This document shows, in pieces, positions 1,717-22,961 of a stretch of 22,961 nt of DNA (positions are counted from its first letter, which is position 1; each line of letters begins with the position of its first letter). This stretch comes from Acidobacteriota bacterium (lineage in GTDB: Bacteria > Acidobacteriota > UBA6911 > JACQSX01). Made by a program: the position numbers and the translations under genes. The DNA lies in NCBI GenBank assembly GCA_036507075.1, contig DASXQR010000121.1, positions 1 through 22,961 of the forward strand, in the 5' to 3' direction. Under the pieces are notes generated by a model. It did no database searches, was not told the origin of the DNA, and worked only from the letters and a program-made list of their open reading frames with translations.

Positions 1717-1731
1717 GCCAAGGAGATCACG

Positions 1732-4478: not shown

Positions 4479-4486
4479 TTTAAGTC

Positions 4487-4699
4487 GAAGGTCTGAAAGT
4501 CGAAGATCTCAACGCCGTCGGAACCGCGCCCGCAAGCCTGGATTATTCGAAAAAACTTAACCACCAAGACCGCCAAGAGCGCCCCGACCTTTGCGCGGTT
4601 CTTAGCGCTCTTGGCGGTCTTTGCGGTGAAATTGTTCGAATAGTCCAGGCTCACGGGCGCGGTCCCGATGGTATTGAGATCTTCAAACTTTCGACCTTC
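4487..4699. repeat. Long imperfect palindrome with a 9-mer-repeat core and 7-mer-like ends
   Basis: 4502-4551 pairs with 4635-4684 (43/50). Core is ACCACCAAGACCGCCAAGAGCGC / GCGCTCTTGGCGGTCTTTGCGGT. Confidence 0.9.
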
Positions 4700-5067
4700 T
4701 TTAGCCGCCGGATGATTTCACCGTTCGCTTCCGGAAATTCCTGGGGATTCATCTCAGAGGGCAGCAGCCATGCATGTTCCTGATCGGCAGCCAGCGCGCC
4801 TTCCGCATGGGCGGTATAAAAGAACCGAATCTCGACCGTTCGATCGGCGTATGGATACACCATTGTTCCTATCTCTTCCAGGTCTGCGGCTGCCAGGCCG
4901 GTCTCCTCGAGCAGCTCCCGGCGGGCGCATCGAGCCCAGGCTTCCTCCCGTCTTTTTTTGCCGCCTGGGAATTCCCACAAACCGGACAGGTGGCCGCCGG
5001 CCGGGCGTCTCAGCACCAGAAATTTTCCATTCCGTTCCAGCAGGACTACAGAGACTTGGATTCTCAC
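4651..5067 (-). CDS. NUDIX hydrolase, MutT/NudG-like (deoxy)nucleoside triphosphate pyrophosphohydrolase
   Basis: Nudix box WEFPGGKKRREEAWARCARRELLEETGL, plus YPYADRTVEIRFF and FPEAN. Start placed at GTG 5067 (138 aa, typical MutT size) because the longer ORF-track N-terminus runs through a repeat. Confidence 0.85.
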   Translation of the reverse strand: MRIQVSVVLLERNGKFLVLRRPAGGHLSGLWEFPGGKKRREEAWARCARRELLEETGLAAADLEEIGTMVYPYADRTVEIRFFYTAHAEGALAADQEHAWLLPSEMNPQEFPEANGEIIRRLKKVESLKISIPSGPRP

Positions 5068-5113
5068 TGCATCAATACCGTAGAGACGCGACATGCCGCG
5101 TTTGGCGCACGCG

Positions 5114-5273
5114 TGGCGCCCACGCCGGGCTTGTCCCGGCGTAGCGGAGGATTTTTCACTAGAACGAAACCCCACCGGCGCTTCAGCCGGTGTTGGGTGA
5201 AGGATTCTTGGGGACACGTCCTAGTGAAGAATCGTTCTCACCACCGGGGCAAGCCCGGTGGCGTGGGGCGCCA
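5114..5273. repeat. REPIN-like palindrome containing three GC-rich hairpins
   Basis: Inverted hairpins CCGGGCTTGTCCCGG and CCACCGGGGCAAGCCCGGTGG, inner stem GATTTTTCACTAGAACG / CGTCCTAGTGAAGAATC, and central hairpin CACCGGC-GCTTCA-GCCGGTG. Confidence 0.8.
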
Positions 5274-5372
5274 GCAATTCACATGTTACAGTCCGCCTAG
5301 CCGCAAAATTCAGAACATTTGATAAGCTATAGCAAAAGAATTCCACTTCCAAAAACTTATTGAGGGAGGAGT

Positions 5373-6134
5373 ATGGACACAGAATCAGCGACTGCTGCAT
5401 TACCTCACAGTCCGGCGCAGCCCATGGGACTGGGCGCGCGCCTGGTCAACATTTTCATCAACCCGGCCGCAGTATTCGAGTCGATCAGAATCAAACCTGC
5501 CTGGGCGAGTGTGGTGCTGATTCTCTCGTTGTTCAGTGCTGCCTCTACCTTCGTTGTGATGCAGCGCATCGGCCCGGAAAACGTCGCACTGCAGCAGATG
5601 AAAAACAGTCCGATGCTGGCCGAGCAATCAGATTCGGAGCTTCAGGAGAAGGCTTCACAGCAGGCTAAATTCACCCTATGGATAGTGCTTGTGTCTGCCC
5701 TGGTTGGATTGTGGATCATCATTCCGGCGATTGCAGGACTGCTTTACCTGCTTGCCGTGATGTTTGGTTCTGACGTCCCCTACAAGAGTTATCTCGCGCT
5801 TACCGCGCACACATTCTGGATGTATTCCCTCGCCACTTCGATTGTGACCTGGTGTGTGGTGTTTCTAACCAGCGACCCGTCCACGATCGACATCCAGAAT
5901 GCAGTACAGGCCAATCTGGGAGTTCTGGTAAGCAGGCAGGAACATCCCGCGCTTCATTCACTGGCCTCTTCCATGGATCTTTTTTCCTTCTGGCATCTGG
6001 CCATTATCGGCCTGGGAATACTGATTCTCACAAACAGACGGTGGGGATTCGCAAAGTCGGTGATGATTCCTGTGACACTGTGGTTAATTTACGTAGGAAT
6101 TAAGGTGGCGTTCGTGTTTGCGTTCTCTAAATAA
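5373..6134 (+). CDS. Yip1-family multi-pass membrane protein
   Basis: GGGAGGAG RBS. N-terminal RLVNIFINPAAVFESIRIKPAW, about five hydrophobic segments and SMDLFSFW near the C-terminus fit bacterial YIP1 proteins. Confidence 0.8.
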   Translation: MDTESATAALPHSPAQPMGLGARLVNIFINPAAVFESIRIKPAWASVVLILSLFSAASTFVVMQRIGPENVALQQMKNSPMLAEQSDSELQEKASQQAKFTLWIVLVSALVGLWIIIPAIAGLLYLLAVMFGSDVPYKSYLALTAHTFWMYSLATSIVTWCVVFLTSDPSTIDIQNAVQANLGVLVSRQEHPALHSLASSMDLFSFWHLAIIGLGILILTNRRWGFAKSVMIPVTLWLIYVGIKVAFVFAFSK

Positions 6135-6136
6135 AA

Positions 6137-6283
6137 AAGTCGAAAATCGAAAGTCAAAGGCTTCACCGCAGAGTCGCAAAGAACGCCAAGTCGCGCTGAG
6201 ATTGTGATGAACTCTGCGGAAACTCGGCGGTTCTCTGCGGCTCTGCGGTGAAGCCTTCGAACTTCAGACCTTCGCTTTGACTT
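6137..6283. repeat. Nested palindrome: 7-mer-like outer arms (AAGTCGA type) around a 9-mer core
   Basis: AAGGCTTCACCGCAGAGTCGCAAAGAAC / GTTCTCTGCGGCTCTGCGGTGAAGCCTT, flanked by AAGTCGAAAATCGAAAGTC and CGAACTTCAGACCTTCGCTTTGACTT. Confidence 0.9.
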
Positions 6284-7376
6284 ACTGCGGCAGTATAACG
6301 ATCGGCAGGCTTGAGGTCTGGAACCCGCCCAGAGTCCGGACGCTGGTTGCGACCACCGGCACATCCGTTGACTGCACCTCAATAGAGCCGCTGAATCCGG
6401 CCGGGATAAACCCGACAAAAATTTCGCGAATGAACCGTGCCAGTTGAGTCCGCGGAGCCAGCGTGATGGACTGCGTCGTCAATGTTCCGCCAAGGGCATC
6501 ACGCAGCGTCATGCTCACTGTGGCGGTGGCTATCTCGCTGCAATTGGCAAAAGCGAGCGCCGTTTCAAAATTGTCCTTGAACTCGACCGGAACGAAGAAG
6601 TGGGTTGCAGGCGGAGCAGAACCTACGCCCGCTTCCGTGACAAAGGCCCCCGAAGAATTAAAGAACTGATACAGCGCCACACCGCCGATTCGGACCGCGG
6701 ATTTGACCCGCGCCCAGCCCGCCGCCAGTGTCGGCCGGGTGCCCGAAGTACTGATTGACAACTGAGAGTTTGGAGGAATGAAGAATTCGAAAGTAGCCGA
6801 AGGCCCGCCTCCCACAGTGGTTCCGATAGTTACCGGAAAAGGGTTCCCGTCAGTGGTGAAAAAGTCCACTGTCACCTGCGCCGCTGCGTTGTTCGGGTTC
6901 ACCAGAATAATGGTGGTTCGGAAAGACCCGCCGGGAATTTTACCCTCAGCAATCTGGGCAAAATAGAGATCGCCGGTAATAGTGAGTGTTGCCGTGTTTG
7001 TTGATACCCCTCCGCCAGGATTCAACAGGCTGATGGTTGCCGTGCCCACGTTTGCCACATCCGTCGCCAGAAGCTGGGCCCGCAGTTGGGTGCTGCTCAC
7101 GAACGTTGTCCCACGGTTCTGCCCATTGATTCTCACGACAGTGCCGTTGGCTCCCCCGGCGGGGGCTACAAAATTAGAGCCATTGACTACCAGTGTGAAA
7201 TTTGGGCCGCCTGCCGGCAAAGAGGTTGGATTAATGCTGGAAATGCTGGGAAGGGCTGTGGTCCCCTGCTGGAATTTAAAGAGGACTTCCGGTAGAGCGG
7301 ACGATGTTGCCGCCATTGCCACTCCGCTGAAAGCAAAGGCCTGACTCAGTAAACAAAATAATAGAATTTTTCTCAT
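6282..7376 (-). CDS. Secreted protein with an IPT/TIG domain and two tandem beta-sandwich domains
   Basis: Signal peptide MRKILLFCLLSQAFAFSGVAMA and GGAGAGG RBS. IPT-like PSISSINPTSLPAGGPNFTLVVNGSNF...TTFVSSTQLRA. Internal duplication LYFAQI...TTIILVNP / FFVPV...TALAFAN. Confidence 0.75.
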   Translation of the reverse strand: MRKILLFCLLSQAFAFSGVAMAATSSALPEVLFKFQQGTTALPSISSINPTSLPAGGPNFTLVVNGSNFVAPAGGANGTVVRINGQNRGTTFVSSTQLRAQLLATDVANVGTATISLLNPGGGVSTNTATLTITGDLYFAQIAEGKIPGGSFRTTIILVNPNNAAAQVTVDFFTTDGNPFPVTIGTTVGGGPSATFEFFIPPNSQLSISTSGTRPTLAAGWARVKSAVRIGGVALYQFFNSSGAFVTEAGVGSAPPATHFFVPVEFKDNFETALAFANCSEIATATVSMTLRDALGGTLTTQSITLAPRTQLARFIREIFVGFIPAGFSGSIEVQSTDVPVVATSVRTLGGFQTSSLPIVILPQ

Positions 7377-7464
7377 ACTGCCCTCTCCGATGAATTCCCC
7401 ATCCTCTGGTACGCCATGCCCGGCGCACCGAAGCTGATGTGTGTTGAATCAAGACACTAATTGA

Positions 7465-7492
7465 ATGATAGCGAGGAGGCGGCAAAAGGCAA
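7465..7492 (-). promoter_or_regulatory. Candidate sigma-70 promoter for the IPT-domain gene
   Basis: Minus strand TTGCCT-N16-TATCAT about 90 bp upstream of the start codon; motif match only. Confidence 0.35.
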
Positions 7493-7558
7493 ATCGGCGC
7501 GCACAAGTTGCGGGTTACGAATTATCAGCGGCAGGTTGCGCAGCAAGCTCGACCTCAA

Positions 7559-7723
7559 AATGCGGAATGCGGAATGCGGAATGCGGAATGCGGAATGCGG
7601 AATAAAAGCTGCCTGTCGTCCGTTGTCCGTTGTCCATTGTTCGCTAACTGATCACTTAGCGACGGACCACAGACGACGGGCCACGGACAATTATTCCGCA
7701 TTCCGCATTCCGAAATCCGCATT
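7559..7723. repeat. Nested palindrome of two different heptamer arrays
   Basis: (AATGCGG)x6 at 7559-7600 and about four ATTCCGC units at 7693-7720. Inside are TTGTCCG-type and CACGGAC-type arrays around TCGCTAA...TTAGCGA. Confidence 0.95.
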
Positions 7724-8800
7724 CTAGGAGCGGGTCGTTTGCGGCTCTGCAGCAGGCACGCTCTGCAGCGCCAGTTGGCCGCAGGCGGCGAAAATATCCA
7801 CGCCGCGCGGCTTGCGCACAAATGCCGAAACGCCTTTGGATTCCAAAGCTTTCTGGAATCGCTCCACATTTTGCCCGGCAGGGGTCTGATATCCGAGAGC
7901 GGGATTGTAGTTCCAGGCAATCAGGTTGACCTTGGCGCGCATGCCCGAAAGCAATTTTGCCAGGGCGCGCGCGTCCTCAAGTGAGTCATTGACCCCGGCC
8001 AGAAGCACATATTCAAATGTGATGCGGCGTCGGGAATCGAGTGGAAATTCACGGCAGGCTTGCAGCAAAGCCTCAATGTTCCACTTCCTGTTGATCGGCA
8101 TGATTTCGGACCGGACGCTGTCATTGGAGGCATTCAAGGAGATGGCAAGGTTGGGGATGATCGGCTGCCGGGCGAGTTTCCTGAGCCCGGAGACAACGCC
8201 GCTGGTCGAGACAGTGATTCGCCGCGGTGAGATCGCCATTCCTTCCGGATCGCACAGGATCTCGAGCGCGCGCATCACCTGCGTGAAGTTGTGGAGCGGC
8301 TCGCCCATACCCATCAACACGATGTTGAAAGACTGATCACGGATGACTCCGCTTGCCTGCGCATGCAGGGGTTGGCCGGCAATCTCGCCTGCAGTCATAT
8401 TGCGCCGCAGGCCCAAGGTCGCAGTGGCGCAGAAAGTGCACCCGACGGCGCACCCCACCTGGCTGGAAATGCAAAGGGTCTCGCGCCGTGTCTCCGGAAT
8501 AAAAACCGTCTCGATCCGCTCGCCGTCTTCCAGCTCGAGCAGCAGCTTGATTGTGCCATCCTTGGATTTCTGCTCGCAATGGAGCCTGGGAAGTTCGAGC
8601 CGGAAATTCTGCGCCAGCAGCACACGCAGCGGACGCGGGAAGTCGGTCATCTGCTCAAAATTGAGAATCTTTCGAGCATAGATCGAGTGATAAAGCTGCC
8701 GCCCGCGGTAGGCAGGTTCGCCGCGCCGCGAGAGAAGCTCAACCATTTCCGGGCGGGTCATCCCGATCAGGTTATTTTGTTCCGCTGCGTCGGGCGTCAT
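7724..8800 (-). CDS. rlmN: 23S rRNA m2A2503 / tRNA m2A37 methyltransferase RlmN (radical SAM)
   Basis: IETV, CISSQVGCAVGCTFCATA (CxxxCxxC), MGMGEP, TVSTSG, ISLNA, FEYVLL, GVND and AACGQL motifs. ATG at 8800 follows AGAAGGA. Confidence 0.95.
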   Translation of the reverse strand: MTPDAAEQNNLIGMTRPEMVELLSRRGEPAYRGRQLYHSIYARKILNFEQMTDFPRPLRVLLAQNFRLELPRLHCEQKSKDGTIKLLLELEDGERIETVFIPETRRETLCISSQVGCAVGCTFCATATLGLRRNMTAGEIAGQPLHAQASGVIRDQSFNIVLMGMGEPLHNFTQVMRALEILCDPEGMAISPRRITVSTSGVVSGLRKLARQPIIPNLAISLNASNDSVRSEIMPINRKWNIEALLQACREFPLDSRRRITFEYVLLAGVNDSLEDARALAKLLSGMRAKVNLIAWNYNPALGYQTPAGQNVERFQKALESKGVSAFVRKPRGVDIFAACGQLALQSVPAAEPQTTRS

Positions 8801-8857
8801 AGATCCTTCTATTCTACAGGCAATGAAGGGCGTCGTTGAATTTGAGAACAAATCGGA

Positions 8858-8936
8858 ACCGCGAAGGCGCCAAGGCGCGAAGAATCACCCTTCCCATTCT
8901 CCGATCTTAATGTTCGCGCTTTCGCGCCTTCGCGGT
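8858..8936. repeat. Palindrome with short tandem-repeat arms (ACCGCGAAG type)
   Basis: ACCGCGAAGGCGCCAAGGCGCGAA / TTCGCGCTTTCGCGCCTTCGCGGT. Confidence 0.9.
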
Positions 8937-9018
8937 AAAGCTTTGGACTCCCCCCAAACCCTGTTGCATGGCTCACCACGCTGTGTTATCAGTTAGGTGC
9001 TGAGGAGATGGGCGCTAA

Positions 9019-11102: not shown

Positions 11103-11116
11103 TTATCACTCCAGAT

Positions 11117-11190
11117 GCTGTTTGTTGGCTTGGTGCCTTGGTGGTTCAAAAGCGATTTAACCACCAAGGCGCCAAGCCAGCTCAACGGCA
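11117..11190. repeat. Palindrome with AACCACCAAG-type arms in reversed (tail-out) arrangement
   Basis: TGGCTTGGTGCCTTGGTGGTT-N12-AACCACCAAGGCGCCAAGCCA, starting 14 bp after the purB stop. Confidence 0.9.
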
Positions 11191-11193
11191 CAT

Positions 11194-11241
11194 TAGCGAT
11201 GTCCTGGATTATTCCGGTAGCGATGCCCTGGATTATTCCGG
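11194..11241. repeat. 24-bp tandem duplication
   Basis: TAGCGATGTCCTGGATTATTCCGG followed by TAGCGATGCCCTGGATTATTCCGG (one mismatch). Confidence 0.95.
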
Positions 11242-11328
11242 CCTGCACTTGCAAACCTGCATTTTTCAGTCGCTCCCTTGCGCCGGCATGGACTGTTCGC
11301 TAACCTTTCTACAGGACCCGGCGTTCAT

Positions 11329-12393
11329 ATGGCTCAGTGCAATGGCTGTCTCCCTCGAATCTCCTCGCTGGCCACTGTCGTTCCCGAGCATCGGATTCCG
11401 CAGAAGCTGGTCAAAGAAATCTGCCGAAGCTATTTTCAGTCGCTCCCGAAGATCGACCTCTTTTTGCCCATTTTCGACCATGCAGAAGTTGAGTTCCGGC
11501 ACTTTTGTTTCCCGCCGGAATATTACTTGTCCCCGCGCGATTTTGAGACGCGCAATCGCGATTATCTGGAAAAAGCCATCGGCCTCTGCATGCAGGGCAT
11601 CCAGGGCGTGCTGAGAAACGAGCCGGTCAACTCGGTTGATCATGTTGTGTGCATCACCACTACGGGGGTTCAGACTCCGAGCCTCGAGGCGCATCTTTTT
11701 AACCGCGCAGGACTTCGTTCCGACATCCGGCGTTCGCCTGTGTTTGGCATCGGCTGCGCCGGGGGTGTCAATTCCATCGCCCTGGCGCGCGATTATGCGC
11801 TGGCCCATCCCGACTCGCGCACTCTGGTCATTTCTGTGGAATTGTGCGGGCAGACGTTCCAGAAGGGAGATTTCAGCGCCAAGAACATCGTCGCCACCTC
11901 GCTGTTTGGCGATGGTGTGGCCGTCCTCTTGATCGACGGAGCAGGCCGCGGCACGAGCGGCATGACCCTGCTTGGCAACCGCTCCGAGTTGATTCCCGAT
12001 TCGCTGGATGTGATGGGTTGGGAGGTGACGCAAAATGGGCTGGAGTTGGTCCTGTCGCAGAAGATCGATGACTACGTGCGCGATTATCTTCCTGCCATCG
12101 TGAAGCGTTTTCTGGACGATAACTCCGTCCGCTTTGAAGATATCGATTATTTCATCTTCCATCCAGGCGGTCCCAAGATCATGCGCGCCTACGAAGAAGT
12201 TTTCCCGCTGCCACCCGATGCGCTTCGATTCACGCGCCACATCCTGCGCTGCTATGGCAACATGTCATCAGCGTCCGTGTTGTTCATCCTGAAGGACGTC
12301 CTGGACCGGGCCCGGCCGGAACCGGGCCAGCTTGGGCTGATGGCCGCCATGGGTCCGGGTTTCGCGGCTGAACTGGCGCTGCTGCAATTCTGA
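11329..12393 (+). CDS. Type III polyketide synthase (chalcone-synthase-like; BpsA/SrsA/RppA family)
   Basis: Catalytic triad in GIGCAGG, FHPGGPKI and YGNMSS; also SVELC, LFGDG and GPGF. ATG at 11329 after ACAGGA is preferred to the TTG at 11278. Confidence 0.92.
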   Translation: MAQCNGCLPRISSLATVVPEHRIPQKLVKEICRSYFQSLPKIDLFLPIFDHAEVEFRHFCFPPEYYLSPRDFETRNRDYLEKAIGLCMQGIQGVLRNEPVNSVDHVVCITTTGVQTPSLEAHLFNRAGLRSDIRRSPVFGIGCAGGVNSIALARDYALAHPDSRTLVISVELCGQTFQKGDFSAKNIVATSLFGDGVAVLLIDGAGRGTSGMTLLGNRSELIPDSLDVMGWEVTQNGLELVLSQKIDDYVRDYLPAIVKRFLDDNSVRFEDIDYFIFHPGGPKIMRAYEEVFPLPPDALRFTRHILRCYGNMSSASVLFILKDVLDRARPEPGQLGLMAAMGPGFAAELALLQF

Positions 12394-12496
12394 AAGGCGC
12401 TAAAGACTGAACCGCCAAGAACGCCAAGAACGCTAAGATTTTTTTATGGAAATCTTGGCGTTCTTCGCGTTCTTGGCGGTTCAATCTTTCGCCTTT
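12393..12496. repeat. 9-mer-arm palindrome between convergent genes
   Basis: TGAACCGCCAAGAACGCCAAGAACGCTAAGATTT / AAATCTTGGCGTTCTTCGCGTTCTTGGCGGTTCA, extended by AAAGGCG...AAAGA / TCTTTCGCCTTT. Confidence 0.95.
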
Positions 12497-13302: not shown

Positions 13303-13680
13303 GACTTTAGTAAGTCTGATAGAACCCCAGATGCCTTCTCATTGGCAAGAAATTTCGCGGGAAAAGAAAAAGAGCCGGAACCGCGAAGTCGCGAAATGTG
13401 CGATTACCTGTTTGGCGCATTCGCGATGAATTTTCAGGTGGACTACCAGTGCGAATAAACGAGCGGCAGGCGCGCCGGATTGACCGTGACGGCGGGAGGT
13501 CCGGAAAGTCCGTTCGCCTCGGCAGGAGGTTCGATGATTGCGCCTGCCCGGGAATCAGCTTCGGAACCGTCACAAAACAAATTTACCGGCGGCGCCCGCA
13601 AGCGGCTTTCAGAAGTTGTTCAGAATGTCAGCTCTGCAATGACATGTGGGAGCAGACCTCTTTAAAGCCGCCTAGCCTGA

Positions 13681-13696: not shown

Positions 13697-13972
13697 TACC
13701 GGGAAGGCCGTGGAGGGTGCGCGCTGAATTCTTAACAAATCCTTGCAAAGCCGTGACTTCCGGCGTGCACTGCGCGCTTGTAGGTATCGACGGGAAGATG
13801 AAGTGCGTCGACATGTTTGTCGCTTCCGTCCCGGCGGCTTACAAAAATGGAGGAAAACCGTAGGCGAGCAGGCGCCCGGACTATCGGGCAGTTGGCGGCC
13901 TAGTTTGTGCTACCCGCAAGGAAGGACTTCACCACAGGGGCTTAGCGCGGCGGAGCGGCAACCAAAAGTCAA

Positions 13973-14043
13973 GGAGAGACGGCCTGAGGGCCGTCTCTCT
14001 GCGGTGCCCTGCCAAGCTGAGACGGCCCTCAGGCTGTCTCTCC
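13973..14043. repeat. REP doublet (two inverted hairpin units)
   Basis: GGAGAGACGGCCTGAGGGCCGTCTC and its inverse GAGACGGCCCTCAGGCTGTCTCTCC (24/25), 21-bp spacer. Each unit is itself a hairpin. Confidence 0.9.
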
Positions 14044-14165
14044 GCTCCCGAATAATTTGCGCAGGCCGCGAAAATTCTCATGGTTAGTAACTCGACCACT
14101 ACCGGGTTTAACCAAAATTGACTTAGCCGGCCCGTCTGATGTATCTAGAGATAGCTGTTCCGTTA

Positions 14166-16001
14166 ATGAGGCGAGCCACGCATCGAATCCTGCTGTTTTT
14201 GGCGATAACAGGGCTTCTTCTGTGCACTGCTGCGTTCAGCAGCGATCCCTACTGCCCTGCCTACCCCGTTTCGCTTCGCCAGGTTGACAAAGAGAGCCGC
14301 CAGCAAGAGCGTCTCTTTCACCAGTTCTCGACCCTTAAGCATCGCCCGCTGGTGCGCGACGTTGCCGCCGCAAACTTCATTGACGACCACATCTTCGGCA
14401 AGATGCTGGCCGATGGTATTGAGCCGGCGCCACTTACCACGGATTCCGAGTTTCTGCGACGTGTCAGTATGGACTTGACGGGCCGCATCCCTGCGCCCGA
14501 GGCGGTGGAAGCCTTCGTACGGGATGCAAACCCGGACAAGAGAGCTGCGATGGTGGACGCTCTGGTCGGATCGGAAGCGTTTGTTGATCAGTGGACCTTC
14601 TTCTTCGCCAATCAGTTCGAGGTCGGCAGCACTTATTACAACTTCATAGGCATCCCGGGTCGCAATTTGTTTTACCGCTATTTGCGTGAATTTGTTGCGC
14701 TGGACAGACCCTACCGGGACGTTATGGCAGAGCTTGTTGCAGCGGCAGGGAATTCTCACAAATTCGGGCCGCCGAACTTCCTGATCCGCGGATTTCAGCA
14801 AGGCGATCCCATCCAGGACACATGGGACACGCTTACCGACCGGGTGACTCTGAAATTTCTCGGCGTCAAGACCGAATGTGTCTCCTGCCACAACGGCGCA
14901 GGGCATCTGGAAGCCATCAACTTGTATCTCTCCCGGCGCACGCGGGAAGAGTTCTGGAGACAGTCTGCTTTTTTCTCGCGGCTGAATCTGTGGCTCACGC
15001 CGGTGGACGTTTTCAGCCAGCAGTTTCGCGGATTCATTTGGGACCGGCTGACCGGCGGTTATCACGGAAGCGTAGACCCGAACAATCCCGGGCCGCGGCC
15101 GGCTCGCGAAGGAGGTCCCTTCGAGCCGGCTTACATGTTCACAGGCGAGCGCACCAGAAACGGCGAATGGCGCAAGGAGCTGGCCCGGATGTTGGGGTCC
15201 GATCGCCAGTTTGCGCGGGCCACGGTGAATTACATCTGGAGTCGTTTCTTTACTATCGGGATTGTGGATCCGCCGGACGGCTGGGACCTGGCAAGAATCG
15301 ATCCCAGGAATCCGCCTCCCCCGCCATGGACCCTGCAGCCGTCGCATCCGGAACTGCTGGAAGCGCTGGCCGATGAATTTATCCGCAGTAACTACAGCAT
15401 CCGGCGAATCATCGGTCTGATTGCCAAGTCCAATGCGTATCAGTTGTCCAGCCGCTATCCGGGCACATGGAAGCCGGAGTACGAGCGCTATTTTGCAAAG
15501 CATATTCCGCGCCGCATGACGGCCGAAGAGATTTACGACGCAGTCAGCATCGCGACGATGACGGAAACACCGATGGTGATCGAGGGTTTTGACCAGCCGC
15601 TCTATTACGCCAACCAGCTACCCGATCCGAGCGAGCCGCGTTACGACTACAACGTGTTTGACTTTCTGTTCAACTTTGGCCGCGGGGACTGGTTTCTACT
15701 GCAGCGCAACCCGAAAACCAGCGTTATTCAGTTGCTCTATCTCATGAATGACGGGAGGGTGAATTTCCGGCTGCTTGGGAATCGAAGCGGCAGCGGCAGC
15801 ACGCGGGTGGCAGTACTGGCTCAGTCGCTGCAGAATGACGACGAGGTAGTGCGCCAGCTTTTTCTGTCCACGCTCAGTCGCTATCCGAGCCAGGAAGAAT
15901 TGGCGACGGCTATGACCCGCAAGCGGGACGATCGTGAGCTGTGGCTCTCAGATCTGCAGTGGGCGCTTTTAAATAAGCTCGATTTTATTTTTAACTATTA
16001 A
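14166..16001 (+). CDS. DUF1549/DUF1553 (planctomycete PSCyt2/PSD1-type) exported protein with one CxxCH
   Basis: Signal peptide; NFIDDHI...DSEFLRRVSMDLTGRIP, CVSCH, FARATVNYIW, PSHPELLEALADEF, RRMTAEEIYD and C-terminal DLQWALLNKLDFIFNY. The start could be 14139. Confidence 0.88.
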   Translation: MRRATHRILLFLAITGLLLCTAAFSSDPYCPAYPVSLRQVDKESRQQERLFHQFSTLKHRPLVRDVAAANFIDDHIFGKMLADGIEPAPLTTDSEFLRRVSMDLTGRIPAPEAVEAFVRDANPDKRAAMVDALVGSEAFVDQWTFFFANQFEVGSTYYNFIGIPGRNLFYRYLREFVALDRPYRDVMAELVAAAGNSHKFGPPNFLIRGFQQGDPIQDTWDTLTDRVTLKFLGVKTECVSCHNGAGHLEAINLYLSRRTREEFWRQSAFFSRLNLWLTPVDVFSQQFRGFIWDRLTGGYHGSVDPNNPGPRPAREGGPFEPAYMFTGERTRNGEWRKELARMLGSDRQFARATVNYIWSRFFTIGIVDPPDGWDLARIDPRNPPPPPWTLQPSHPELLEALADEFIRSNYSIRRIIGLIAKSNAYQLSSRYPGTWKPEYERYFAKHIPRRMTAEEIYDAVSIATMTETPMVIEGFDQPLYYANQLPDPSEPRYDYNVFDFLFNFGRGDWFLLQRNPKTSVIQLLYLMNDGRVNFRLLGNRSGSGSTRVAVLAQSLQNDDEVVRQLFLSTLSRYPSQEELATAMTRKRDDRELWLSDLQWALLNKLDFIFNY

Positions 16002-16002
16002 A

Positions 16003-16236
16003 ACCCGGAGGTCAGAATCCGAGCCGCGCGCGTCAGCAAGCGGACCTTCAGCGGAGAGTGCCACGAAGCGACGAAGGCACGAAGAATCGCTGTTCATTCT
16101 GAAGTGACACTTCTCATAACTCGATTCGGGTTGTCTGAGAAGTGGCACCTCTAAATCAATAGTTATCCTTCGTGTCTTCGTGGCGAAACTACCCGCGGAG
16201 GGTCCGCTTGCTTACGCGCGCGGCTCGGACTTCGGG
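16003..16236. repeat. Multi-layer nested palindrome
   Basis: Outer arms 16018-16054 / 16193-16229; middle arms 16060-16094 / 16158-16184; inner arms 16101-16116 / 16136-16151. Confidence 0.92.
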
Positions 16237-16255
16237 CAGTGATAGAGGAGATGCA

Positions 16256-17590
16256 ATGAAGAACTGTGCCAGTTGCAACAAGATCACGCGCCGGCAATGG
16301 ATTTCAGGAATGACTGCCTGGGCGGCGCTGGCCGCGCTCACAAAGCGGGGCGATGCGCAGATTGCCTCTTCTCAGGTGAACGTTCAGGGTACCGCGCGGG
16401 CCTGCATCTTCATCAACCTGAGTGGCGCTCCAAGCCATCTGGACACATTCGATGTAAAGGACGCCCCTTGGAATCCTGCGGACGTAAATCTGAGACAGCA
16501 CGCGGGCGGCATTGTGCTCTCCAATACTCTGTTTCCTGAAATCTCCAAAATTGCAGGCGACCTGTGCCTGCTGCGCTCGGTGGTCAGTTGGGAAGCCGCT
16601 CACGAGCGGGGACAGTTCTATCTGCAGACAGCCCACCCGTCAAACCCCGCGTTCGTTACAGAAACCCCCCATATCGGCGCCGTAGTGGCGCTCGAGCGCG
16701 GCGGTTCCGGGCCCGTTCCACCCTTCTTAACCTTGAATGGGACCACGCGCCAGGGCGCCGGCTTTCTGGATGGAAGGGTCGCGCCGGTCTCGCCGCCTCT
16801 GAATCCGGGAGGATTGAGTAACTTCGAGCACCAGAATCTGAGCAAAATCCAGTTTGATGAGAAATATCGACTGCTCGAAGATCTCGACGCCGCGCTTCGG
16901 GCCGCCCCTTACGACAAGTCCATGGCGGATCATGTGGCGTTCTATCGATCGGCCAGGCAGCTCATGTACGATCCTTCCGTGTCGGCGGTGTTCAGATTTA
17001 CGGCCGATGAGGAACGACGTTACGGCGGCACTCAATTCGCCCGCGCCTGCATCGTGGCGCGCAACGCCGTGAAGGCGAAAAATGGAGCGGTCTTTATCAA
17101 CATCGATTATGGTGGATGGGATACACACCAGAACATGTTCGACCGTAAATACGCTCCCAATATGTATACGCTGTGCAACGAACTTGACCGGGGCGTGGGC
17201 GCGCTGGTGGAAGACCTGAAGCAGAGTGGAGATTTCAAGGAAACGCTGATCGTAATGATGGGTGAATTCGGACGTACGCCCGGACCGCTGAATGGCAGGG
17301 GAGGCCGGGATCACCACAAGAACGCTATGAGTGTCGCCATGCTGGGCGGCGGCGTCAAAGGTGCGACCATCATCGGGGCTACGGACGCAAACGGGGAACG
17401 CGTTGTCGAGCCGGGCTGGAAGGCACAGCGGCACATCGTGATGGAAGACATCGCCGCCACGCTTTATTCGGCACTGGGCATCAATTGGACAAAGAGTATT
17501 ACCGACACTCCCACCGGCCGCAGATTTGAGTATGTGCCGTTTTCGAACAACTACACCGCGATCGATGAAGTTTTCCAGGCTAACGCTTAG
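16256..17590 (+). CDS. DUF1501 family protein with a Tat signal
   Basis: GAGGAG RBS before ATG 16256. ITRRQWI twin-arginine motif; CIFINLSGAPSHLDTFD, GGWDTH, GEFGRTP, GRDHH, LGGGVKG and DIAATLYSALGI. Confidence 0.9.
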   Translation: MKNCASCNKITRRQWISGMTAWAALAALTKRGDAQIASSQVNVQGTARACIFINLSGAPSHLDTFDVKDAPWNPADVNLRQHAGGIVLSNTLFPEISKIAGDLCLLRSVVSWEAAHERGQFYLQTAHPSNPAFVTETPHIGAVVALERGGSGPVPPFLTLNGTTRQGAGFLDGRVAPVSPPLNPGGLSNFEHQNLSKIQFDEKYRLLEDLDAALRAAPYDKSMADHVAFYRSARQLMYDPSVSAVFRFTADEERRYGGTQFARACIVARNAVKAKNGAVFINIDYGGWDTHQNMFDRKYAPNMYTLCNELDRGVGALVEDLKQSGDFKETLIVMMGEFGRTPGPLNGRGGRDHHKNAMSVAMLGGGVKGATIIGATDANGERVVEPGWKAQRHIVMEDIAATLYSALGINWTKSITDTPTGRRFEYVPFSNNYTAIDEVFQANA

Positions 17591-17593
17591 ATT

Positions 17594-17837
17594 TCGGAAT
17601 GCGGAATGCGGAATGCGGAATAATCAGATTTGTCTGTGCGGCAAACGTGGTTGCGTTCAGGGGCGTGGACGGGGTTATGGACTTTTTGGTTGGGACTGAG
17701 CGGTGAGATGCCCGGGTCGAGCAGGACAAAATCGTAGTTATTCCGCATTCCCCATTCCGCATTCCGAATTCCGAATTCTGCATTCCCCATTCCGCATTCC
17801 GCATTCATCATTCCGCATTCATCATTCCGCATTCCGA
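17594..17837. repeat. Heptamer-arm palindrome; the right arm is 14 ATTCCGC-type units inside a CDS
   Basis: Four (G/T)CGGAAT units at 17594-17621 and 14 in-register ATTCnnn units at 17740-17837. The stem continues inward (AATCAGATTTGTC / GACAAAATCGTAGTT). Confidence 0.95.
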
Positions 17838-20603
17838 ATTTTTCTTTTCCTCAATCTCGCCGGTGGATATCTTCTCGCCCAGGGCCCCCCGAGCCGAATA
17901 TATGTCAGCTCCCCAGCCGCCCGATTGATTTCGGGCCAAAAAGTCCAGGTTTCCGCTGTCACAAGAGACGCCGCCGGCGCTGTGCGCACCGGTGACTCCT
18001 TCAACTGGACGAGCAGCGACAACAACATACTTTCGGTGGACTCCTTTGGCGTGGTGACAGGACGGCGGCTGGGAATGGCCAACGTAACAGCAATGCTGCA
18101 GTTGCCCAATGGGAGCCTGAGAGGAACCATTCGCCTGCAGGTCCTGCCTTCGAGGCTGCTTGTCACTCCCGCCGCCACGCAGGTCTTTGTGGGCGACACT
18201 TTGCAATATTCCGCCACGGCCCTTGATATCGACGGCGTCCCTATTCCCAACATTCGATTTCAATGGAGGGTGAATGGAGCCAATGGGTTTTTCACGCAGG
18301 CGGCTCGGATTGAAGATTCGGGGTTGATGAGCGCGCGCGCTCCTGCTGTCGTAACAGTTCGTGCGTCGTTCGGCTATCAATACTCATTCGGCCAGTTCGT
18401 CAATGAAGTCGCCGGCACGGCGACCGTCGAAATAAGAACACGGCCGGATTATCGGCTGCGGCGATTGCTTTCAACCGAAGAAGTCGCCACCAGTTTCCGC
18501 CTCAGGCTCTCAAACAGCTCTATCGCAGTCAATGAAAACGGCCAGATTGCATTCGTTGCCAACCTGGACGGCCTGGCGTCGGCTTTGCTGCTGTACGAGG
18601 CGGGCAAGTACCGCGTGCTGGGGTCCGGCGGTGTTCCCGGACCTACTGCCGGCACCACGATTGCTAATTTCGATTCGCCCGTAATTAACAGGAAGGGCGA
18701 GGTTCTTGCCAGAGCCAGTGTGAACCGCGGTCCCGGCGGCCTGTTACTTGCATCGGCAACAACTTCTTCCTTTGTGGTGCTCGACGGCCAGAGAGGAGCG
18801 GGGTTTCAGAACCTGTGGGGAGCCAGGCTGTCGCGAGACTGCTTCAATGACAAAGGAGAATTTCTATTCACGGCCAGTTTCCAGTATCCCGGTTCGGAAG
18901 AAAATCTCCCGGGGCTGTTCCGGTACTCCAATTCCAGGGTTGACCTGCTGTGGACGTCAACCATTCCGCTGCCGGGATTCTCATCCGCCGCCTGGATCGG
19001 CGACTTTGGGATTGATGGCAGTGGCGTGGGCTATTTTTCCGCTTTTACGGACAGCGCGGGCGGGGTGTTTCGCCAGCAGGGTTTCGACGCAGCGACGCGA
19101 GTGATCGGTACCGGAGACTCGCTGGCCGGTTCCCGTGTCCGCAGCATCCGCGGATTGGCCTTAGCCCCTTCCGGAGAGCTGGCCGTCGGCTTGGATTTAG
19201 AGAACAATGCCAGCTACATCGTAAGATACCCAAGAACGGGTGCGGCCGCTCCGGAAGTGATTTCTGTTCGAAATCAGTTCAATATTCTTTCCATCAACGC
19301 AGACGCGGGCCTGTTGTTCCGGGGAGACGGCGGGCGCGGATGGGGGTTGTACCGCTGGTCCAACGGTGTCGTCCTTCCCGTGCTCCTGGACGGAAAGCTG
19401 GCTCCTAACGGCGAGCCTCTTCGAAATATTTACGCCGCTTCGTTGCTTTCCTCGGGAACAGTGATCGCGGAGATGGAGACGTCGGAAAACCCGTTCGTCG
19501 TTGCCAGACTCGGCAGCTCAAAGAATGTTCTTTTCCAGGCCGGCGACTGGCTGGATGTTGCGGCAAATCTGGATGCTTTCAATCTTGCCGGAGCATCGAG
19601 CGACGGCACGCTTTATCTGTTGTCGACAAGCAGCGGCAGTCTGTTCGAAATGACGCGCTCGGGACTGGTGCCCAGGCTGATTACAGGCGATCGGCTTTCC
19701 CCCACCAACACTTTCCGTGGAACGAACTCAAATCAGTTCAAAGTAACTTCCGGAGGAGATCTGTACTTTACCTCAGAGAATTCGTTGTTCCGTTTGACCA
19801 GAGAGCGTATTGAAAGCGTTCTCTCTTTCGCGCTGGAGTCGGACGGGGCCTCCGTCTGGACCCCCTACTCGATCGCAGTCAATCAGGCTGGAACCATGGC
19901 ATGGCTCGCCGGCACCAATCTCGGGCAGGACCGCCTTTATCTTACGCGGGGAAACCGCCATACGCTGCTGGCGACGTTCGTGAACGGACTTGTGCTGGGC
20001 GGCGGGTCGCCGCAAATCGGTCCTCCCGGTCTAAAATTCCATCGGATTTCGGAAATTGCCCTCGATGAATCCGGCAGGGTGATGGCGCGTTTCGAGCGCG
20101 ACGACGGTTCTTCCGCGTTCTTCCTTTACACCGGTACCGCATGGCAATCAGCCAACCTGGCGGAAGGCGCATTGTTTGCCGGCCAACCCATTTATTGGGG
20201 AGGCAACCTGAAAGCTGTCGGCAACAGCTTCTACGCAGTCTTGAACTCCCGGTCCAATAGTTCAATGCTTGGCCGTTTTTCCGACCAGAAATGGGCGCCG
20301 ATCATCGAACCCGATGAAACTCTGCCCGATGGCAGCTCAGTAATGTCGGTTCAATCTTTTGACGTCAATCGCCGCGGCGAAGTGGCGGCGCTTGTCCATC
20401 TGGGATCGCTGCAGGCGCTGATTCTGCGTGCCGGCGAAACGACGCGCATGATTTACGCGAATAATCAAAGCACAGAATCCGGCGATCAGTTTTCTAATCA
20501 GATCTGGGACATTCTGCTGCTCGAAGATCGCCGCGTTTTCTTTACGGGCCTGAATCTGCAGGATCGCTATCTGCTGTACGGCGCGGAGCCGCTCTTTCCA
20601 TGA
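17703..20603 (+). CDS. Large secreted protein: two Ig-like (Big_2-type) domains plus NxxGxxAF tandem beta-repeats
   Basis: WTSSDNNILSVDSFGVVTG...G and YSATALDIDG...FQW Ig-like motifs. Repeats NENGQIAF, NRKGEVL, NDKGEFLF, NQAGTMAW and NRRGEVAA. Predicted cleavage at LLA-Q. Confidence 0.85.
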   Translation: MRCPGRAGQNRSYSAFPIPHSEFRILHSPFRIPHSSFRIHHSAFRIFLFLNLAGGYLLAQGPPSRIYVSSPAARLISGQKVQVSAVTRDAAGAVRTGDSFNWTSSDNNILSVDSFGVVTGRRLGMANVTAMLQLPNGSLRGTIRLQVLPSRLLVTPAATQVFVGDTLQYSATALDIDGVPIPNIRFQWRVNGANGFFTQAARIEDSGLMSARAPAVVTVRASFGYQYSFGQFVNEVAGTATVEIRTRPDYRLRRLLSTEEVATSFRLRLSNSSIAVNENGQIAFVANLDGLASALLLYEAGKYRVLGSGGVPGPTAGTTIANFDSPVINRKGEVLARASVNRGPGGLLLASATTSSFVVLDGQRGAGFQNLWGARLSRDCFNDKGEFLFTASFQYPGSEENLPGLFRYSNSRVDLLWTSTIPLPGFSSAAWIGDFGIDGSGVGYFSAFTDSAGGVFRQQGFDAATRVIGTGDSLAGSRVRSIRGLALAPSGELAVGLDLENNASYIVRYPRTGAAAPEVISVRNQFNILSINADAGLLFRGDGGRGWGLYRWSNGVVLPVLLDGKLAPNGEPLRNIYAASLLSSGTVIAEMETSENPFVVARLGSSKNVLFQAGDWLDVAANLDAFNLAGASSDGTLYLLSTSSGSLFEMTRSGLVPRLITGDRLSPTNTFRGTNSNQFKVTSGGDLYFTSENSLFRLTRERIESVLSFALESDGASVWTPYSIAVNQAGTMAWLAGTNLGQDRLYLTRGNRHTLLATFVNGLVLGGGSPQIGPPGLKFHRISEIALDESGRVMARFERDDGSSAFFLYTGTAWQSANLAEGALFAGQPIYWGGNLKAVGNSFYAVLNSRSNSSMLGRFSDQKWAPIIEPDETLPDGSSVMSVQSFDVNRRGEVAALVHLGSLQALILRAGETTRMIYANNQSTESGDQFSNQIWDILLLEDRRVFFTGLNLQDRYLLYGAEPLFP

Positions 20604-22961
20604 AAAGAAGGAACCGCAAAGAACGCCAAGAACGCCAAGGCTTCAATGGCTCTAGTCCAATTCACTTACGGCATATGGTTGAAGCGGTGAACCAAATCCA
20701 ACATGCAGGGCGATACCGCCTGACTAAATGTAATATTCTTGGCGTTCTTTGCGCTCTTTGCGGTTCACTTTGCGGTTCCGTTTTTGCGCAAAGTCCGCCC
20801 ATCGCGCAGATCGAAGTGACGGCCGCGCAGAACTATGTCGTGAGCGGAAGATTCCTCCAGCTTCAGGCGCGCGCATATTCCGCCGCAGGCTCCACTATCA
20901 ACAATTTCTCGGCCCAATGGAGATCGGCCAACCCGGAGATTGCCGAAATCAATAGCACCGGCATGGTCCGCGGACGCCTGCCCGGAACAACATCGATCGA
21001 GGCGATCGCCGCTGGTGTCAGCGGCAGACTTTCGCTGCGCATTTTTCCGGGCCACATCGAGGTCAAGCCGGACCGGCTCGACCTCCAGATTTATCGAAGC
21101 GCGGCGATAACGGCTCGAGCGCTCGACGCGGACGGCAATCCCCTGTCTTCCCGCTTTATCTGGTTCAGCGGCATCCCGGCAGTGGCGACCGTCGACGCCG
21201 CCGGCCTGGTGACCGCACGGGGAGAGGGCTCCACGACCATCACGGCGCGGCTGGATCTTCCCGAGGCTCCTTTCAACTTTGCGGCAACTGCGATAGTCAA
21301 TGTCCGCCGTCCCGGTTCGTTTGAACTTTCGCGCCTGATTTCCAACGAGCTGCAGAATCAGCCCGTCGTTTTGCGAGATATTACCGACGTCTCGCTGTCC
21401 AGCAAAGACCATCTGGCGTTCACCGGAATTCTTTCCAACGGTTCGCAGGGAGCTTTCCTGTGGGAGAAGGGGAACCTGAGAACGCTTGCCATTGCCGGCG
21501 AGTACCAGGAAGCCTTAGGTCAGATTATTGTCAATTTCGGTCCTGTCTCGGTCAACGCCAGAGGAGAAGTGCTGGTGACGGCTCTTTTGCCGGTGTGGCC
21601 GAATCAGGCGTTGCTTCTCTATCGTCCCGGATCCGCGGCGCCGGAGAACGTGACGATCGCAGGCGATTATGGCGGTCTTGGAATCGGGCCACGCTCGCTG
21701 AGCGATCGAGGCGAGATCGTCTTTCAAACCTGGAATTCTCAAGGGAACTACGTGCTGCTGCGGGGAGAGGATGGGCGGATCAAGACAGTGATTTCGGCCG
21801 GCCAGTCTTTACCCGATTTCGGCGCCGTGGAGTGGTTAGGGCCACCCTCGCTTACTCCTTCGGGAAGGGTGATATTCCCGGTCGGTGCTCCAAATAAAAA
21901 TGGGTACTATCTCTGGGACGGCAAAGAGAATCGAAGGATCTACATTACCGGACAAACCCTGGGAGGACGAGTCATAGGTTGGGGCGGCGAGCCAATGGAA
22001 GCTGCCGGGGGCGATCTTTTCGTTCAGTTGAACGTCGACGGCTCCAATCAGATTGTCAGGTATTCTGCCGGCATTCTGACTGCTGCTGTTTCAGACGGCC
22101 AGGCGTTTCCCGGAGTTGTCATCGGCAACCTGTGGTCCTTGTACGACGTGCGCGGGGGCGCGCTGCTTTTCGGAGCGGGCACTGATCAGGGGGGGCGATT
22201 GCTGAGGTTGGAACAAGGATTCGTGGACACGGCGGCGCGGTTTGGATCCGCTGCGGAACTGAATGAATGGACCCAGATCAACCAGGCTTTCATCGCCAGT
22301 GACGGCAGCGTGATTGTGCGCGGTTACCAGGGGAAAACGCCTTCGAAGGTCTCCAGGCTTTCCGGTTCCTTCTCAGAGAGGCTGCTTCAGAGCGGCACAA
22401 GCTTGAATATCGCCGCTTCCACTTCGCTGTTTTGGGCAAATCTGAGCGGCGGCGGCGACGTTGGAAATTTGACCTTCCTTGGCCCCGGAGGTCCGGTTCG
22501 AGTGGGCAAGAGCAGCGTGCAGCTTGGCGCGGGGCCCGGGGATCCTCTGCCCGGTGGAAATATTCTGACGCGAGTAAATAACGCGGGAGCCAACCGGAAC
22601 GGTGACTTCGCCATGGCGGTGGACACCCTTAACGGACAGTCCTTGTATCTGCTCAAGAACGGGCGGCTGAGCGTGGTTGCCGAGTCTAACGGCACGATAA
22701 AAACGGCCGGCGGTAATACCGTCAATGGTTTTTGCTGCGGACCGGTCGCCTTGAACAATCGCGGCCAGATTGCCTCGTTTGTCAATTTTGACCAGGGCAG
22801 CGGGATGGCGCTGATTACTCCCAACGAGAGTGTTGTGAAAGTCGTGTTCACTTGGGGTAGTCCGGCGCCCGGCGGCAGTACTTATAATTGGGTTCAAAAT
22901 CTCGCGTTGGACGAGAGCGGACGCATTCTGTTTGCGGCCAATCTGCAGGATGGAAGCAATG
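20600..22961 (+). CDS. Paralogue of the upstream Ig-like/NxxGxxAF protein, truncated by the window end
   Basis: ATG 20600 overlaps the upstream TGA (ATGA). Manual translation: MKRRNRKERQERQGF...ILGVLCALCGSLCGSVFA-QSPPIAQIEV...WRSANPEIAEINSTGMVRG...WFSGIPAVATVDAAGLVTARGEG...NARGEVL...NNRGQIAS. No stop was seen. An alternative ATG lies at 20675. Confidence 0.85.
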   Translation, partial: MKRRNRKERQERQGFNGSSPIHLRHMVEAVNQIQHAGRYRLTKCNILGVLCALCGSLCGSVFAQSPPIAQIEVTAAQNYVVSGRFLQLQARAYSAAGSTINNFSAQWRSANPEIAEINSTGMVRGRLPGTTSIEAIAAGVSGRLSLRIFPGHIEVKPDRLDLQIYRSAAITARALDADGNPLSSRFIWFSGIPAVATVDAAGLVTARGEGSTTITARLDLPEAPFNFAATAIVNVRRPGSFELSRLISNELQNQPVVLRDITDVSLSSKDHLAFTGILSNGSQGAFLWEKGNLRTLAIAGEYQEALGQIIVNFGPVSVNARGEVLVTALLPVWPNQALLLYRPGSAAPENVTIAGDYGGLGIGPRSLSDRGEIVFQTWNSQGNYVLLRGEDGRIKTVISAGQSLPDFGAVEWLGPPSLTPSGRVIFPVGAPNKNGYYLWDGKENRRIYITGQTLGGRVIGWGGEPMEAAGGDLFVQLNVDGSNQIVRYSAGILTAAVSDGQAFPGVVIGNLWSLYDVRGGALLFGAGTDQGGRLLRLEQGFVDTAARFGSAAELNEWTQINQAFIASDGSVIVRGYQGKTPSKVSRLSGSFSERLLQSGTSLNIAASTSLFWANLSGGGDVGNLTFLGPGGPVRVGKSSVQLGAGPGDPLPGGNILTRVNNAGANRNGDFAMAVDTLNGQSLYLLKNGRLSVVAESNGTIKTAGGNTVNGFCCGPVALNNRGQIASFVNFDQGSGMALITPNESVVKVVFTWGSPAPGGSTYNWVQNLALDESGRILFAANLQDGSN
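20611..20766. repeat. 9-mer-arm palindrome lying inside the 5' coding region
   Basis: GAACCGCAAAGAACGCCAAGAACGCCAAG / CTTGGCGTTCTTTGCGCTCTTTGCGGTTC (27/29); total length 156 bp. Confidence 0.95.

Follow-up and report, generated by a model that had tools for sequence, protein, structure and literature searches.

The stretch of DNA analysed here (the window) spans 22,961 nucleotides of an Acidobacteriota genome (contig DASXQR010000121.1), in which genes for amidohydrolases, a NUDIX protein, Yip1, an IPT-domain protein, RlmN, a metallo-hydrolase and PurB, a type III polyketide synthase (PKS), HemD, DUF1549 and DUF1501 proteins, and two large proteins are separated by long palindromic elements. 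Our analyses suggest that these palindromes are mobile, gene-less relatives of one-gene cassettes, found elsewhere in the host genome (G000) and in its relatives, in which a GxxExxY nuclease, a four-helix-bundle or a Y1 HUH gene lies between repeat arms.

All 11 long palindromes listed in a preliminary description of this DNA are present, with DNA folding z scores of -3.8 to -21.5 against dinucleotide shuffles. An inverted-repeat scan returned 10 elements in the window versus 0 in ten shuffled windows, and 107 elements in two large contigs versus 1 in the control. Two boundaries required adjustment: the element placed at 11117 starts at ~11126, and the one placed at 13973 is the core of a larger composite (13928-14088). 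In addition, a twelfth, degenerate copy that had escaped the earlier reading lies at 13379-13428 (folding z -1.0). Each window element matches 46-251 loci in G000 (6.1 Mb in 233 contigs), a genome that was also detected in soil metagenomes and that contains 1749 palindromic elements, ~26 tandem-unit clusters, and at least two such clusters within one element in 169 of the 1749 cases. The statement that every intergenic gap is filled holds for the window, where 11/11 gaps of >40 bp carry an element (gene overlaps and a 16-bp gap do not), but not for the whole genome, where 1400 of 2899 gaps of at least 100 bp do, as counted, like all our genome-wide gap and gene numbers, with a crude custom gene caller. 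The claimed invasion of genes is mostly 3'-end capture, with a stop codon lying at least 12 nt inside an element in 83 of 3783 genes, whereas invasion of whole genes is rare (52/1749 elements wholly within called genes).

Layers and nesting of the window elements

The element at 4482-4699 comprises three layers, namely (i) outer AAGTCGA-type 7-mer arms, the unit of which flanks four-helix-bundle genes in two relatives (G001:C266 and G003:C211), (ii) a middle arm resembling repetitive extragenic palindromic (REP) sequences, with a CnGA foot (about 4519-4550 / 4636-4666), and (iii) inner 9-mer arms (4560-4583 / 4595-4627) that match the GxxExxY cassette at G000:C83:12873. Its right arm supplies the last 16 codons and the stop of the NUDIX gene (4651-4699, minus strand), the ortholog of which in G001 has a different C-terminus. 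The next element, at 5114-5273, is REP-like with hairpin arms; its site is empty in G001, and neither for it nor for the CnGA-footed outer arm at 16018 did the sequences fetched contain an intact cognate gene. At 6137-6284, 7-mer outer arms enclose an 8-9-mer element (6162-6252) whose arm type flanks GxxExxY genes in G003 (C411) and G004 (C221). The element at 7559-7724, the right edge of which contains the rlmN stop in this assembly, has outer AATGCGG arrays, with a unit that flanks a four-helix-bundle gene in G001 (C456), and inner TTGTCCG-type arrays (about 7612-7688) that match the four-helix-bundle cassette at G000:C88:58555.

Arms of 8-mers (ACCGCGAAG-type) lie between divergent genes at 8857-8936, and a similar arm flanks a GxxExxY gene of G003 (C369). 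At 11126-11179, the 8-mer arms stand tail-to-head (inward) across a short A/T-rich spacer and are as at the GxxExxY cassette G000:C37:29125. The 9-mer element at 12393-12496, located between convergent stops and overlapping the last hemD codons, has an arm identical at 26/26 positions to that of the GxxExxY cassette in G000:C83. The degenerate 8-mer copy at 13379-13428 is weak, with 14 loci matching its left part. In the composite at 13928-14088 (plus strand), an 8-mer arm head (13928-13940) precedes a 148-nt module of recent origin (13941-14088), in the core of which (13973-14043) two hairpins form a doublet resembling the arms of promoter-bearing Y1-type remnants (G000:C82:44491 and C17:50762). 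In the multicopy composite at 16018-16229, an 8-mer (GCCACGAAG) element (16060-16184) is enclosed by REP-like arms that have a CnGA foot; the inner arm matches a broken GxxExxY gene (G000:C59:76931), and related outer arms enclose a local promoter variant in G005, a genome of another family. The last two elements have a unique spacer between AATGCGG arrays of about 4 and 14 units (17589-17838) and 9-mer arms with a spacer of about 98 nt (20611-20766), respectively. Overall, 10 of the 11 window elements are tied in at least one layer to the arms of cassettes (in G000, G001, G003, and G004).

Reciprocal nesting of these modules is real. What the 16018 outer arm encloses varies between short spacers, a 7-mer element, and an 8-mer element, and the arm is also found within 7-, 8-, 9-, and 10-mer palindromes; since the window's version of this composite recurs in 8 copies among 29 pairs, some nests were copied whole. 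The description of modules as nested at symmetry centres applies to some of them, whereas the 13941-14088 module occupies a fixed register within an arm of 8-mers: under a strict pattern, 22 of its 33 copies (matching at 88% or more) lie directly behind the first unit of such an arm. The 8-mer head beside this module is only slightly more variable than the module, and the flank could therefore be either a target or a part of the element. In the ACCAC 8-mer family, 139 arm pairs stand head-to-tail, as around genes, and 142 tail-to-head, the latter with a spacer that is 11-15 nt long in 133 cases, 72% A/T, and different in 139/140 copies. Such tail-to-head pairs, which stand alone in 139/140 cases and number 0 in the 9-mer family, may serve as fixed-loop substrates or be what is left of end-to-end junctions. 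A further small hairpin family (GCCGCAACC; 37 loci in G000) is located, with few exceptions, behind the first unit of an 8-mer arm and often precedes 6- or 7-mer arrays.

Homogenisation between the two arms of a copy, as had been proposed, is also real, with mirrored variants ~2-13-fold above expectation in most families, but it concerns a minority of variants and is missing from two families. Counting events from both arms, rare variants were mirrored in the other arm of the same copy in 44/323 cases for AATGCGG arms (7.9 expected), 16/177 for 9-mers (5.0 expected), and 6/62 for the 16018 arm (1.3 expected), whereas no excess was seen for the 13973 core (2/92 versus 1.2 expected) or the 5114 family (0/15). 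Assembler smoothing may contribute to this mirroring.

Cassette genes and a competence-type promoter motif

Several non-autonomous palindrome families exist, and the genes to which the preliminary description had pointed, encoding GxxExxY (PF13366), four-helix-bundle (PF05635), and Y1 transposase (PF01797) proteins, do occur between same-type arms elsewhere in G000 and in its relatives. We found 6 GxxExxY, 9 four-helix-bundle (at 7 loci), and 12 Y1 hits in G000, and none in the window. The arms pair with the genes in a regular manner, with 8-9-mers at GxxExxY genes, 6-8-mers at four-helix-bundle genes, and REP-like arms at Y1 HUH genes; a stricter rule assigning 7-mers to four-helix-bundle genes was rejected, as 6- and 8-mer arms also flank the latter. 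In small trees of 26 and 15 rows, which have long branches and 6/23 and 4/12 well-supported inner branches, respectively, sister proteins of different genomes mostly share their arm unit. Arms are thus common to cassettes and empty elements, and an internally deleted four-helix-bundle cassette (G000:C82:21435) has retained its arms, its promoter, and both gene ends; a few further cassette remnants were found besides it.

The suggested link to REP-associated tyrosine transposases (RAYT) or IS200 was partly borne out insofar as Y1 genes lie between same-type arms, but by score many of the Y1 proteins with hairpin arms are closer to IS200-like TnpA than to RAYT; among 8 scanned, 5 passed the IS200 cut-off, 1 the RAYT cut-off, and 2 neither. 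In the GxxExxY proteins, a D/E/K triad is invariant in 61/61 sequences, and an alignment-based model (pLDDT 89) adopts a PD-(D/E)XK nuclease-like fold, whereas single-sequence folding reached a pLDDT of only 40. The four-helix-bundle protein matches XCC0516, with an Avd match below the cut-off; no catalytic site is known in it, and it would depend on enzymes of the host. Among the 251 genomes of the phylum that were sampled (the unpublished G148 included), 144 have a member of its family.

Just inside the left arm of cassette genes lies a two-block motif, TTCGCA and GTTATGT separated by 17 nt, which occurs in G000 at 61 sites of at least 20 bits, with fixed spacing, versus 0 in the reversed genome. 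At 18 of the sites of at least 25 bits, the start codon lies exactly 5 nt past the -10 box, as would be expected for leaderless transcripts. The same motif precedes comEA, comEC, comF, comM, dprA, radC, a pilin gene, recA, ssb, recG, recQ, and pcrA, as well as an ERCC4 nuclease gene and unknown genes; one motif ahead of both DNA-uptake and recombination genes, as seen here, is a feature of competence regulons of the alternative-sigma type. Because the motif seeds came from cassettes, the matrix was rebuilt from 12 host promoters only, and with this host-only matrix, 20 of the 22 cassette promoters came out among the 52 highest-ranking sites of the genome. The motif is present at 5/6 GxxExxY, 6/7 four-helix-bundle, and 10/12 Y1 loci of G000 and, in G001 and G003 together, at 14/17, 6/9, and 13/17 of the respective genes (33/43). 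The window has no good promoter site, its best one (16 bits) lying inside an arm.

Motif counts were 67 in G001, 48 in G003, and 12 in G002; in the rest of 125 genomes of the class, they did not rise above background. In G004, the exact pattern found 0 sites, and looser copies precede comM and comEA. In G005, a variant with the same 17-nt spacing precedes 7 cassette genes, comM, comEA, and radC; it reads GTA in 9/10 of these genes, where 97% of the G000 sites read GTT. By eye, a few cassette genes in G059, G158, and G172 resemble the upstream sequence of the local comEA or comM. The association of cassette genes with a competence-type promoter is therefore firm in this family and likely in the order.

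Two paralogous genes for small coiled-coil proteins lie at G000:C28:572-2368, along with one for an ERCC4 nuclease; each of the three follows a competence-type promoter, with arms nearby, and unknown genes follow it at C48:57222, C97:18644, and C192:97717 of the same genome. Another promoter site (G000:C17:70859-73700) lies within the 3' end of an extracytoplasmic function (ECF) sigma gene and is aimed at an anti-sigma-like neighbour, with three more promoter sites (including that of recG) within 10 kb. At G000:C146:65461-66630, a reverse-transcriptase-like gene, which we take from its motif to be of the group II intron type, adjoins a promoter site preceding an IrrE-like peptidase gene. Finally, in G001 (C383) and G003 (C73), a GxxExxY cassette without a promoter of its own lies directly downstream of dprA.

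Turnover at orthologous junctions and proposed mobilisation

Alignment of orthologous loci in relatives, the check on mobility put forward with the preliminary description, yielded both empty and differently filled sites. The window gene order is kept in the relatives G001-G004, in which the NUDIX-yip1 junction is empty in G001, the IPT-rlmN junction is empty in G001 and G002, and the yip1-IPT junction of G001 holds a different, AATGCGG-type 7-mer element. The junction after purB carries a 7-mer element in G001 and nested 8-9-mers in G003 and is empty in G004, and after the third amidohydrolase gene, in place of the window's 4482 element, G003 carries a GxxExxY cassette together with an 8-mer element. 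In a wider comparison with ~0.4 Mb each (a part of each genome) of G001 and G002, 194 orthologous junctions comprised 85 that were empty in both genomes, 73 filled in one genome only, 28 with different elements, and 8 with similar ones. For G001, the 89 junctions divided into 37 empty in both, 15 filled in G000 only, 8 in the relative only, 22 different, and 7 similar; for G002, the corresponding numbers among 105 junctions were 48, 47, 3, 6, and 1. The DUF1549-DUF1501 junctions of the relatives belong to paralogs (~40% identity) and were not counted as orthologous. Elements have thus been gained, lost, and replaced at orthologous junctions, and their density per 100 kb ranges from ~29 in G000 and ~21 in G001 to ~2.5 in G002. 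Target-site duplications were not found, direct repeats at the flanks equalling cross-copy controls in 108, 139, and 45 pairs, and the inverted similarity of element flanks exceeded that of controls. We regard mobility itself, together with the pairing of arms and genes, as very probable.

As cassette genes share their predicted promoter with DNA-uptake genes, the hairpins are likely to spread during uptake of outside DNA. We lean towards a model in which the gene-less elements are mobilised in trans, on single-stranded DNA, during competence. A competence sigma factor would read the shared motif, so that synthesis of the cassette proteins is predicted to coincide with that of the DNA-uptake machinery; each protein would bind its own arm on single-stranded DNA; and a cut at the arm may be followed by HUH rejoining or by RecA/DprA-type templated repair from another copy, which would put new modules into existing arms and hairpin loops. 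Such rejoining or repair at arms would produce nesting, swapped centres, and partial arm mirroring without target duplications. Precedents for parts of this model are described in PMC11893778, PMC5581495, and PMC6006769. More tentative is a broader proposal, somewhat less likely than not to hold: that there is an undescribed, non-HUH class of single-strand mobile elements for which the GxxExxY and four-helix-bundle proteins act in trans, each reading its own tandem arm; that three unrelated gene families converged on, and track, the host's competence promoter; and that natural transformation is the period during which empty hairpins, by the thousand, become inserted within each other.

Several observations weigh against trans-mobilisation during competence. 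At the level of the elements, (i) no filled/empty polymorphism was seen between the window and contigs of two runs, X1 and X2, (ii) AATGCGG, the most abundant family, has no cognate gene in this assembly, (iii) the spacers of the 11 window elements hold no convincing gene remnant, and (iv) the best structural match of the GxxExxY model, Cas4, is weak (E 0.0036), with no PDB match at E ≤0.001. At the level of the promoter, no sigma factor for the motif was identified among 44 sigma-70 hits, and the motif is abundant in its exact form only in this family. In G005, the variant pattern is not enriched genome-wide (19 versus 14 in the control), dprA, comF, and 2/5 Y1 genes have no motif, and 15 held-out sites comprised 1 leaderless yraN, 1 weak Y1 hit, 5 sites inside repeat arms, and 8 without support; YraN acts in transformation, according to PMC13663708. 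Outside the class (G157, G172, G333, G158, and G179), most cassette genes follow their arm directly with no promoter visible by eye, so that competence control is limited to certain lineages and the promoter-competence link is not general.

By analogy, the system may work like two described ones. REP doublets forming hairpins (REPINs) with their RAYT genes, and class 3 TnpA-Y1 systems, likewise comprise non-autonomous extragenic hairpin doublets (PMC3116915, PMC5581495, PMC6006769). They also have a cognate gene between the same repeats, for which the candidates here are the Y1-type remnants with arms like the 13973 core. Class 3 Y1 genes of Acidobacteria and Planctomycetes are described as flanked by hairpins with a CnGA foot (PMC6006769), which is also seen in the 16018 and 4519 arms of the window, and in the REP/RAYT literature (PMC3116915, PMC5581495, PMC6006769) the Escherichia coli gene yafM is reported to rise with competence. 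However, the arms of most of the present elements are tandem 6-10-mers associated with genes that are not HUH, nesting within one another involves dozens of families, and a promoter inside the cassette is common to three unrelated gene families. The inverted, multicopy, extragenic palindrome doublet that defines a REPIN was found only among our REP-like hairpins (the 13973 core, 5114, and the 16018 arms), whereas the 8-9-mer and 7-mer types have tandem arrays of 7-9-mers instead of REP palindromes as arms. The Ssn nucleases with their NTS/SRM repeats are similar in that a small single-domain nuclease gene lies between its own repeats, hundreds of gene-less copies exist, and there is a link to natural transformation (PMC11893778). 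Ssn proteins are of the GIY-YIG type, whereas those predicted here are PD-(D/E)XK, four-helix-bundle or HUH proteins with tandem-array arms; a rough pattern search found no small GIY-YIG protein.

Intervening sequences of 23S rRNA genes (S23p) share the protein family PF05635, terminal inverted repeats, and tandem heptamers (PMC4990558), and cassettes outside the window do have an S23p-family open reading frame between inverted repeats. Unlike them, the present copies are situated between protein genes, carry a promoter motif of their own, and are in many cases empty; none of the window elements or cassettes inspected lies inside a 23S rRNA gene. Paired tandem 7/8-mer sites of Geobacter metallireducens (PMC2700814) and TAACTGA arrays of Beggiatoaceae and cyanobacteria (PMC4679880) are likewise intergenic hepta- or octanucleotide arrays on opposite strands, but they were interpreted as regulator binding sites or RNA signals, and the main-text passages considered from these two reports link the arrays neither to cassette genes nor to competence. 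The tandem-armed types thus belong neither to REPIN/RAYT nor to Ssn/NTS nor to rRNA intervening sequences.

IS200/IS605 elements have a Y1 transposase, hairpin ends, and no target duplication, and miniature inverted-repeat transposable elements (MITEs) are internally deleted derivatives, all of which has counterparts here, the last in a few cassettes. However, our Y1 genes are diverged single copies with long inverted arms on both sides, and two other gene families show the same layout. The target-site duplication of classical, DDE-mobilised MITEs was not found at our elements, and internally deleted derivatives of coding elements amount to G000:C82:21435 and the few other remnants, none of them in window spacers.

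Were trans-mobilisation to hold, two very large orphan protein families (TIGR04256 and TIGR02436) would gain a specific candidate substrate, their own arm; the paired 7-9-mer arrays noted in several bacteria would have a possible origin; and repeat turnover in about half of the larger intergenic gaps of a genome would be timed to DNA uptake. If GxxExxY proteins do cut single-stranded DNA at family-specific arms, they would join Ssn as the second large group of site-specific nucleases acting on single strands. A literature search, conducted largely among publications available without subscription, found none that joins these gene families, their arms, and competence.

Alternative explanations and further observations

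The main rival holds that the cassettes encode host-domesticated single-strand nucleases or binders that, in the manner of SsnA and NTS, police incoming DNA at repeats during transformation, with the spread of repeats as a by-product. It accords with the co-divergence of the shared competence-type promoter with that of the host, with cassette genes being diverged single copies and not young duplicates, and with the SsnA precedent (PMC11893778) and the bait idea for RAYT (PMC5581495), whereas it sits poorly with the many broken or shrunken cassettes and with gene sets that vary among relatives (G002 has no GxxExxY gene); moreover, a selfish element would also profit from tracking the host promoter. 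We consider it unlikely as the primary explanation, although it is compatible with trans-mobilisation and the two are not exclusive. An RNA-level role for the elements is possible: they could be stem-loops that protect 3' ends or, like 23S intervening sequences, are processed by RNase III, and that are spread by host recombination or an RNA route with the cassette genes as passengers. Element edges crowd at stop codons (580/1089 within 10 nt, versus 100/422 at starts), heptamer repeats, terminal inverted repeats, and RNase III cleavage are all known from the Coxiella intervening sequence (PMC4990558), the four-helix-bundle proteins resemble Avd, and G000 has one reverse-transcriptase-like gene. 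Yet elements are also present in 262 of 672 large divergent gaps, different families replace one another at a single junction, arm units track protein clades, an Rfam search gave no match, and the internal promoter is left unexplained, all of which makes this account somewhat less likely still than that of a domesticated filter.

Far less credible is the notion that the elements are immobile, being ordinary terminators or slippage arrays perfected by palindrome repair. Their location after stops and the partial mirroring of their arms would fit, but a U-tract is present in only 105 of 1025 elements located after a stop, terminator-like sites are not enriched (18 versus 20.6 in shuffles), near-identical composites occur at 33 loci, and the empty and differently filled orthologous junctions contradict it; the short stem with U-tract, conserved in place, of an intrinsic terminator was not what we found. 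That the palindromes are assembly artefacts is the least probable of all. In favour of an artefact are one perfect mirror that includes the end of hslU and stops at a contig end, and a difference of X1 and X2 from the window at 7725-7738. Against it, single contigs cross 6/11 elements in X1 and 4/11 in X2 with few or no differences, and the same families occur in separately assembled relatives; X1 is possibly the source of the window DNA, and joints in the X1/X2 contig matches come from other repeat copies. Runs X3-X5, with small shares only, were left out, and no RNA run was listed as holding this DNA. For the remaining five elements, the contigs listed for the two runs break inside the repeat; where testable, the window palindromes are not an artefact of assembly. 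As the families are present beyond the window, orthologous sites are empty, and run contigs cross the elements, the motifs are neither confined to the window nor conserved in place nor products of assembly. Mirrored host coding DNA was rejected as proof of de novo inverted copying, since its best case (the hslU end, G000:C179) stops exactly at the contig end and is likely an artefact, and among 35 perfect unique mirrors adjoining repeat DNA, 7 touch called genes and none is convincing.

At 7725-7738, beside the right edge of the 7559 element, the contigs of X1 and X2 alike show 6 changed letters and 2 gaps relative to the window, X1 being otherwise almost identical to it; their version would remove the rlmN stop there, and the discrepancy is either an assembly error or a junction allele. 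RlmN ends 11-12 residues earlier in 3/4 relatives, and a metagenome search with RlmN, which returned only relatives at 49-55% identity, was not used. Within yip1 (5510-5546), X2 shows 7 differences in 37 bp against a near-identical background, a possible recombination tract.

Among the genes of the window, three amidohydrolase paralogs occupy 67-4478, and 14166-22961 holds a DUF1549/DUF1553-DUF1501 operon and two large Ig-like/DUF7453 genes with an element at each junction. A 24-bp tandem duplication (11194-11241) lies upstream of the type III PKS gene, its unit including a piece that resembles the middle arm of the 4482 element. Elsewhere in G000 (C38:1312-2610), a second purB-like gene with 52% identity contains one in-frame TGA.

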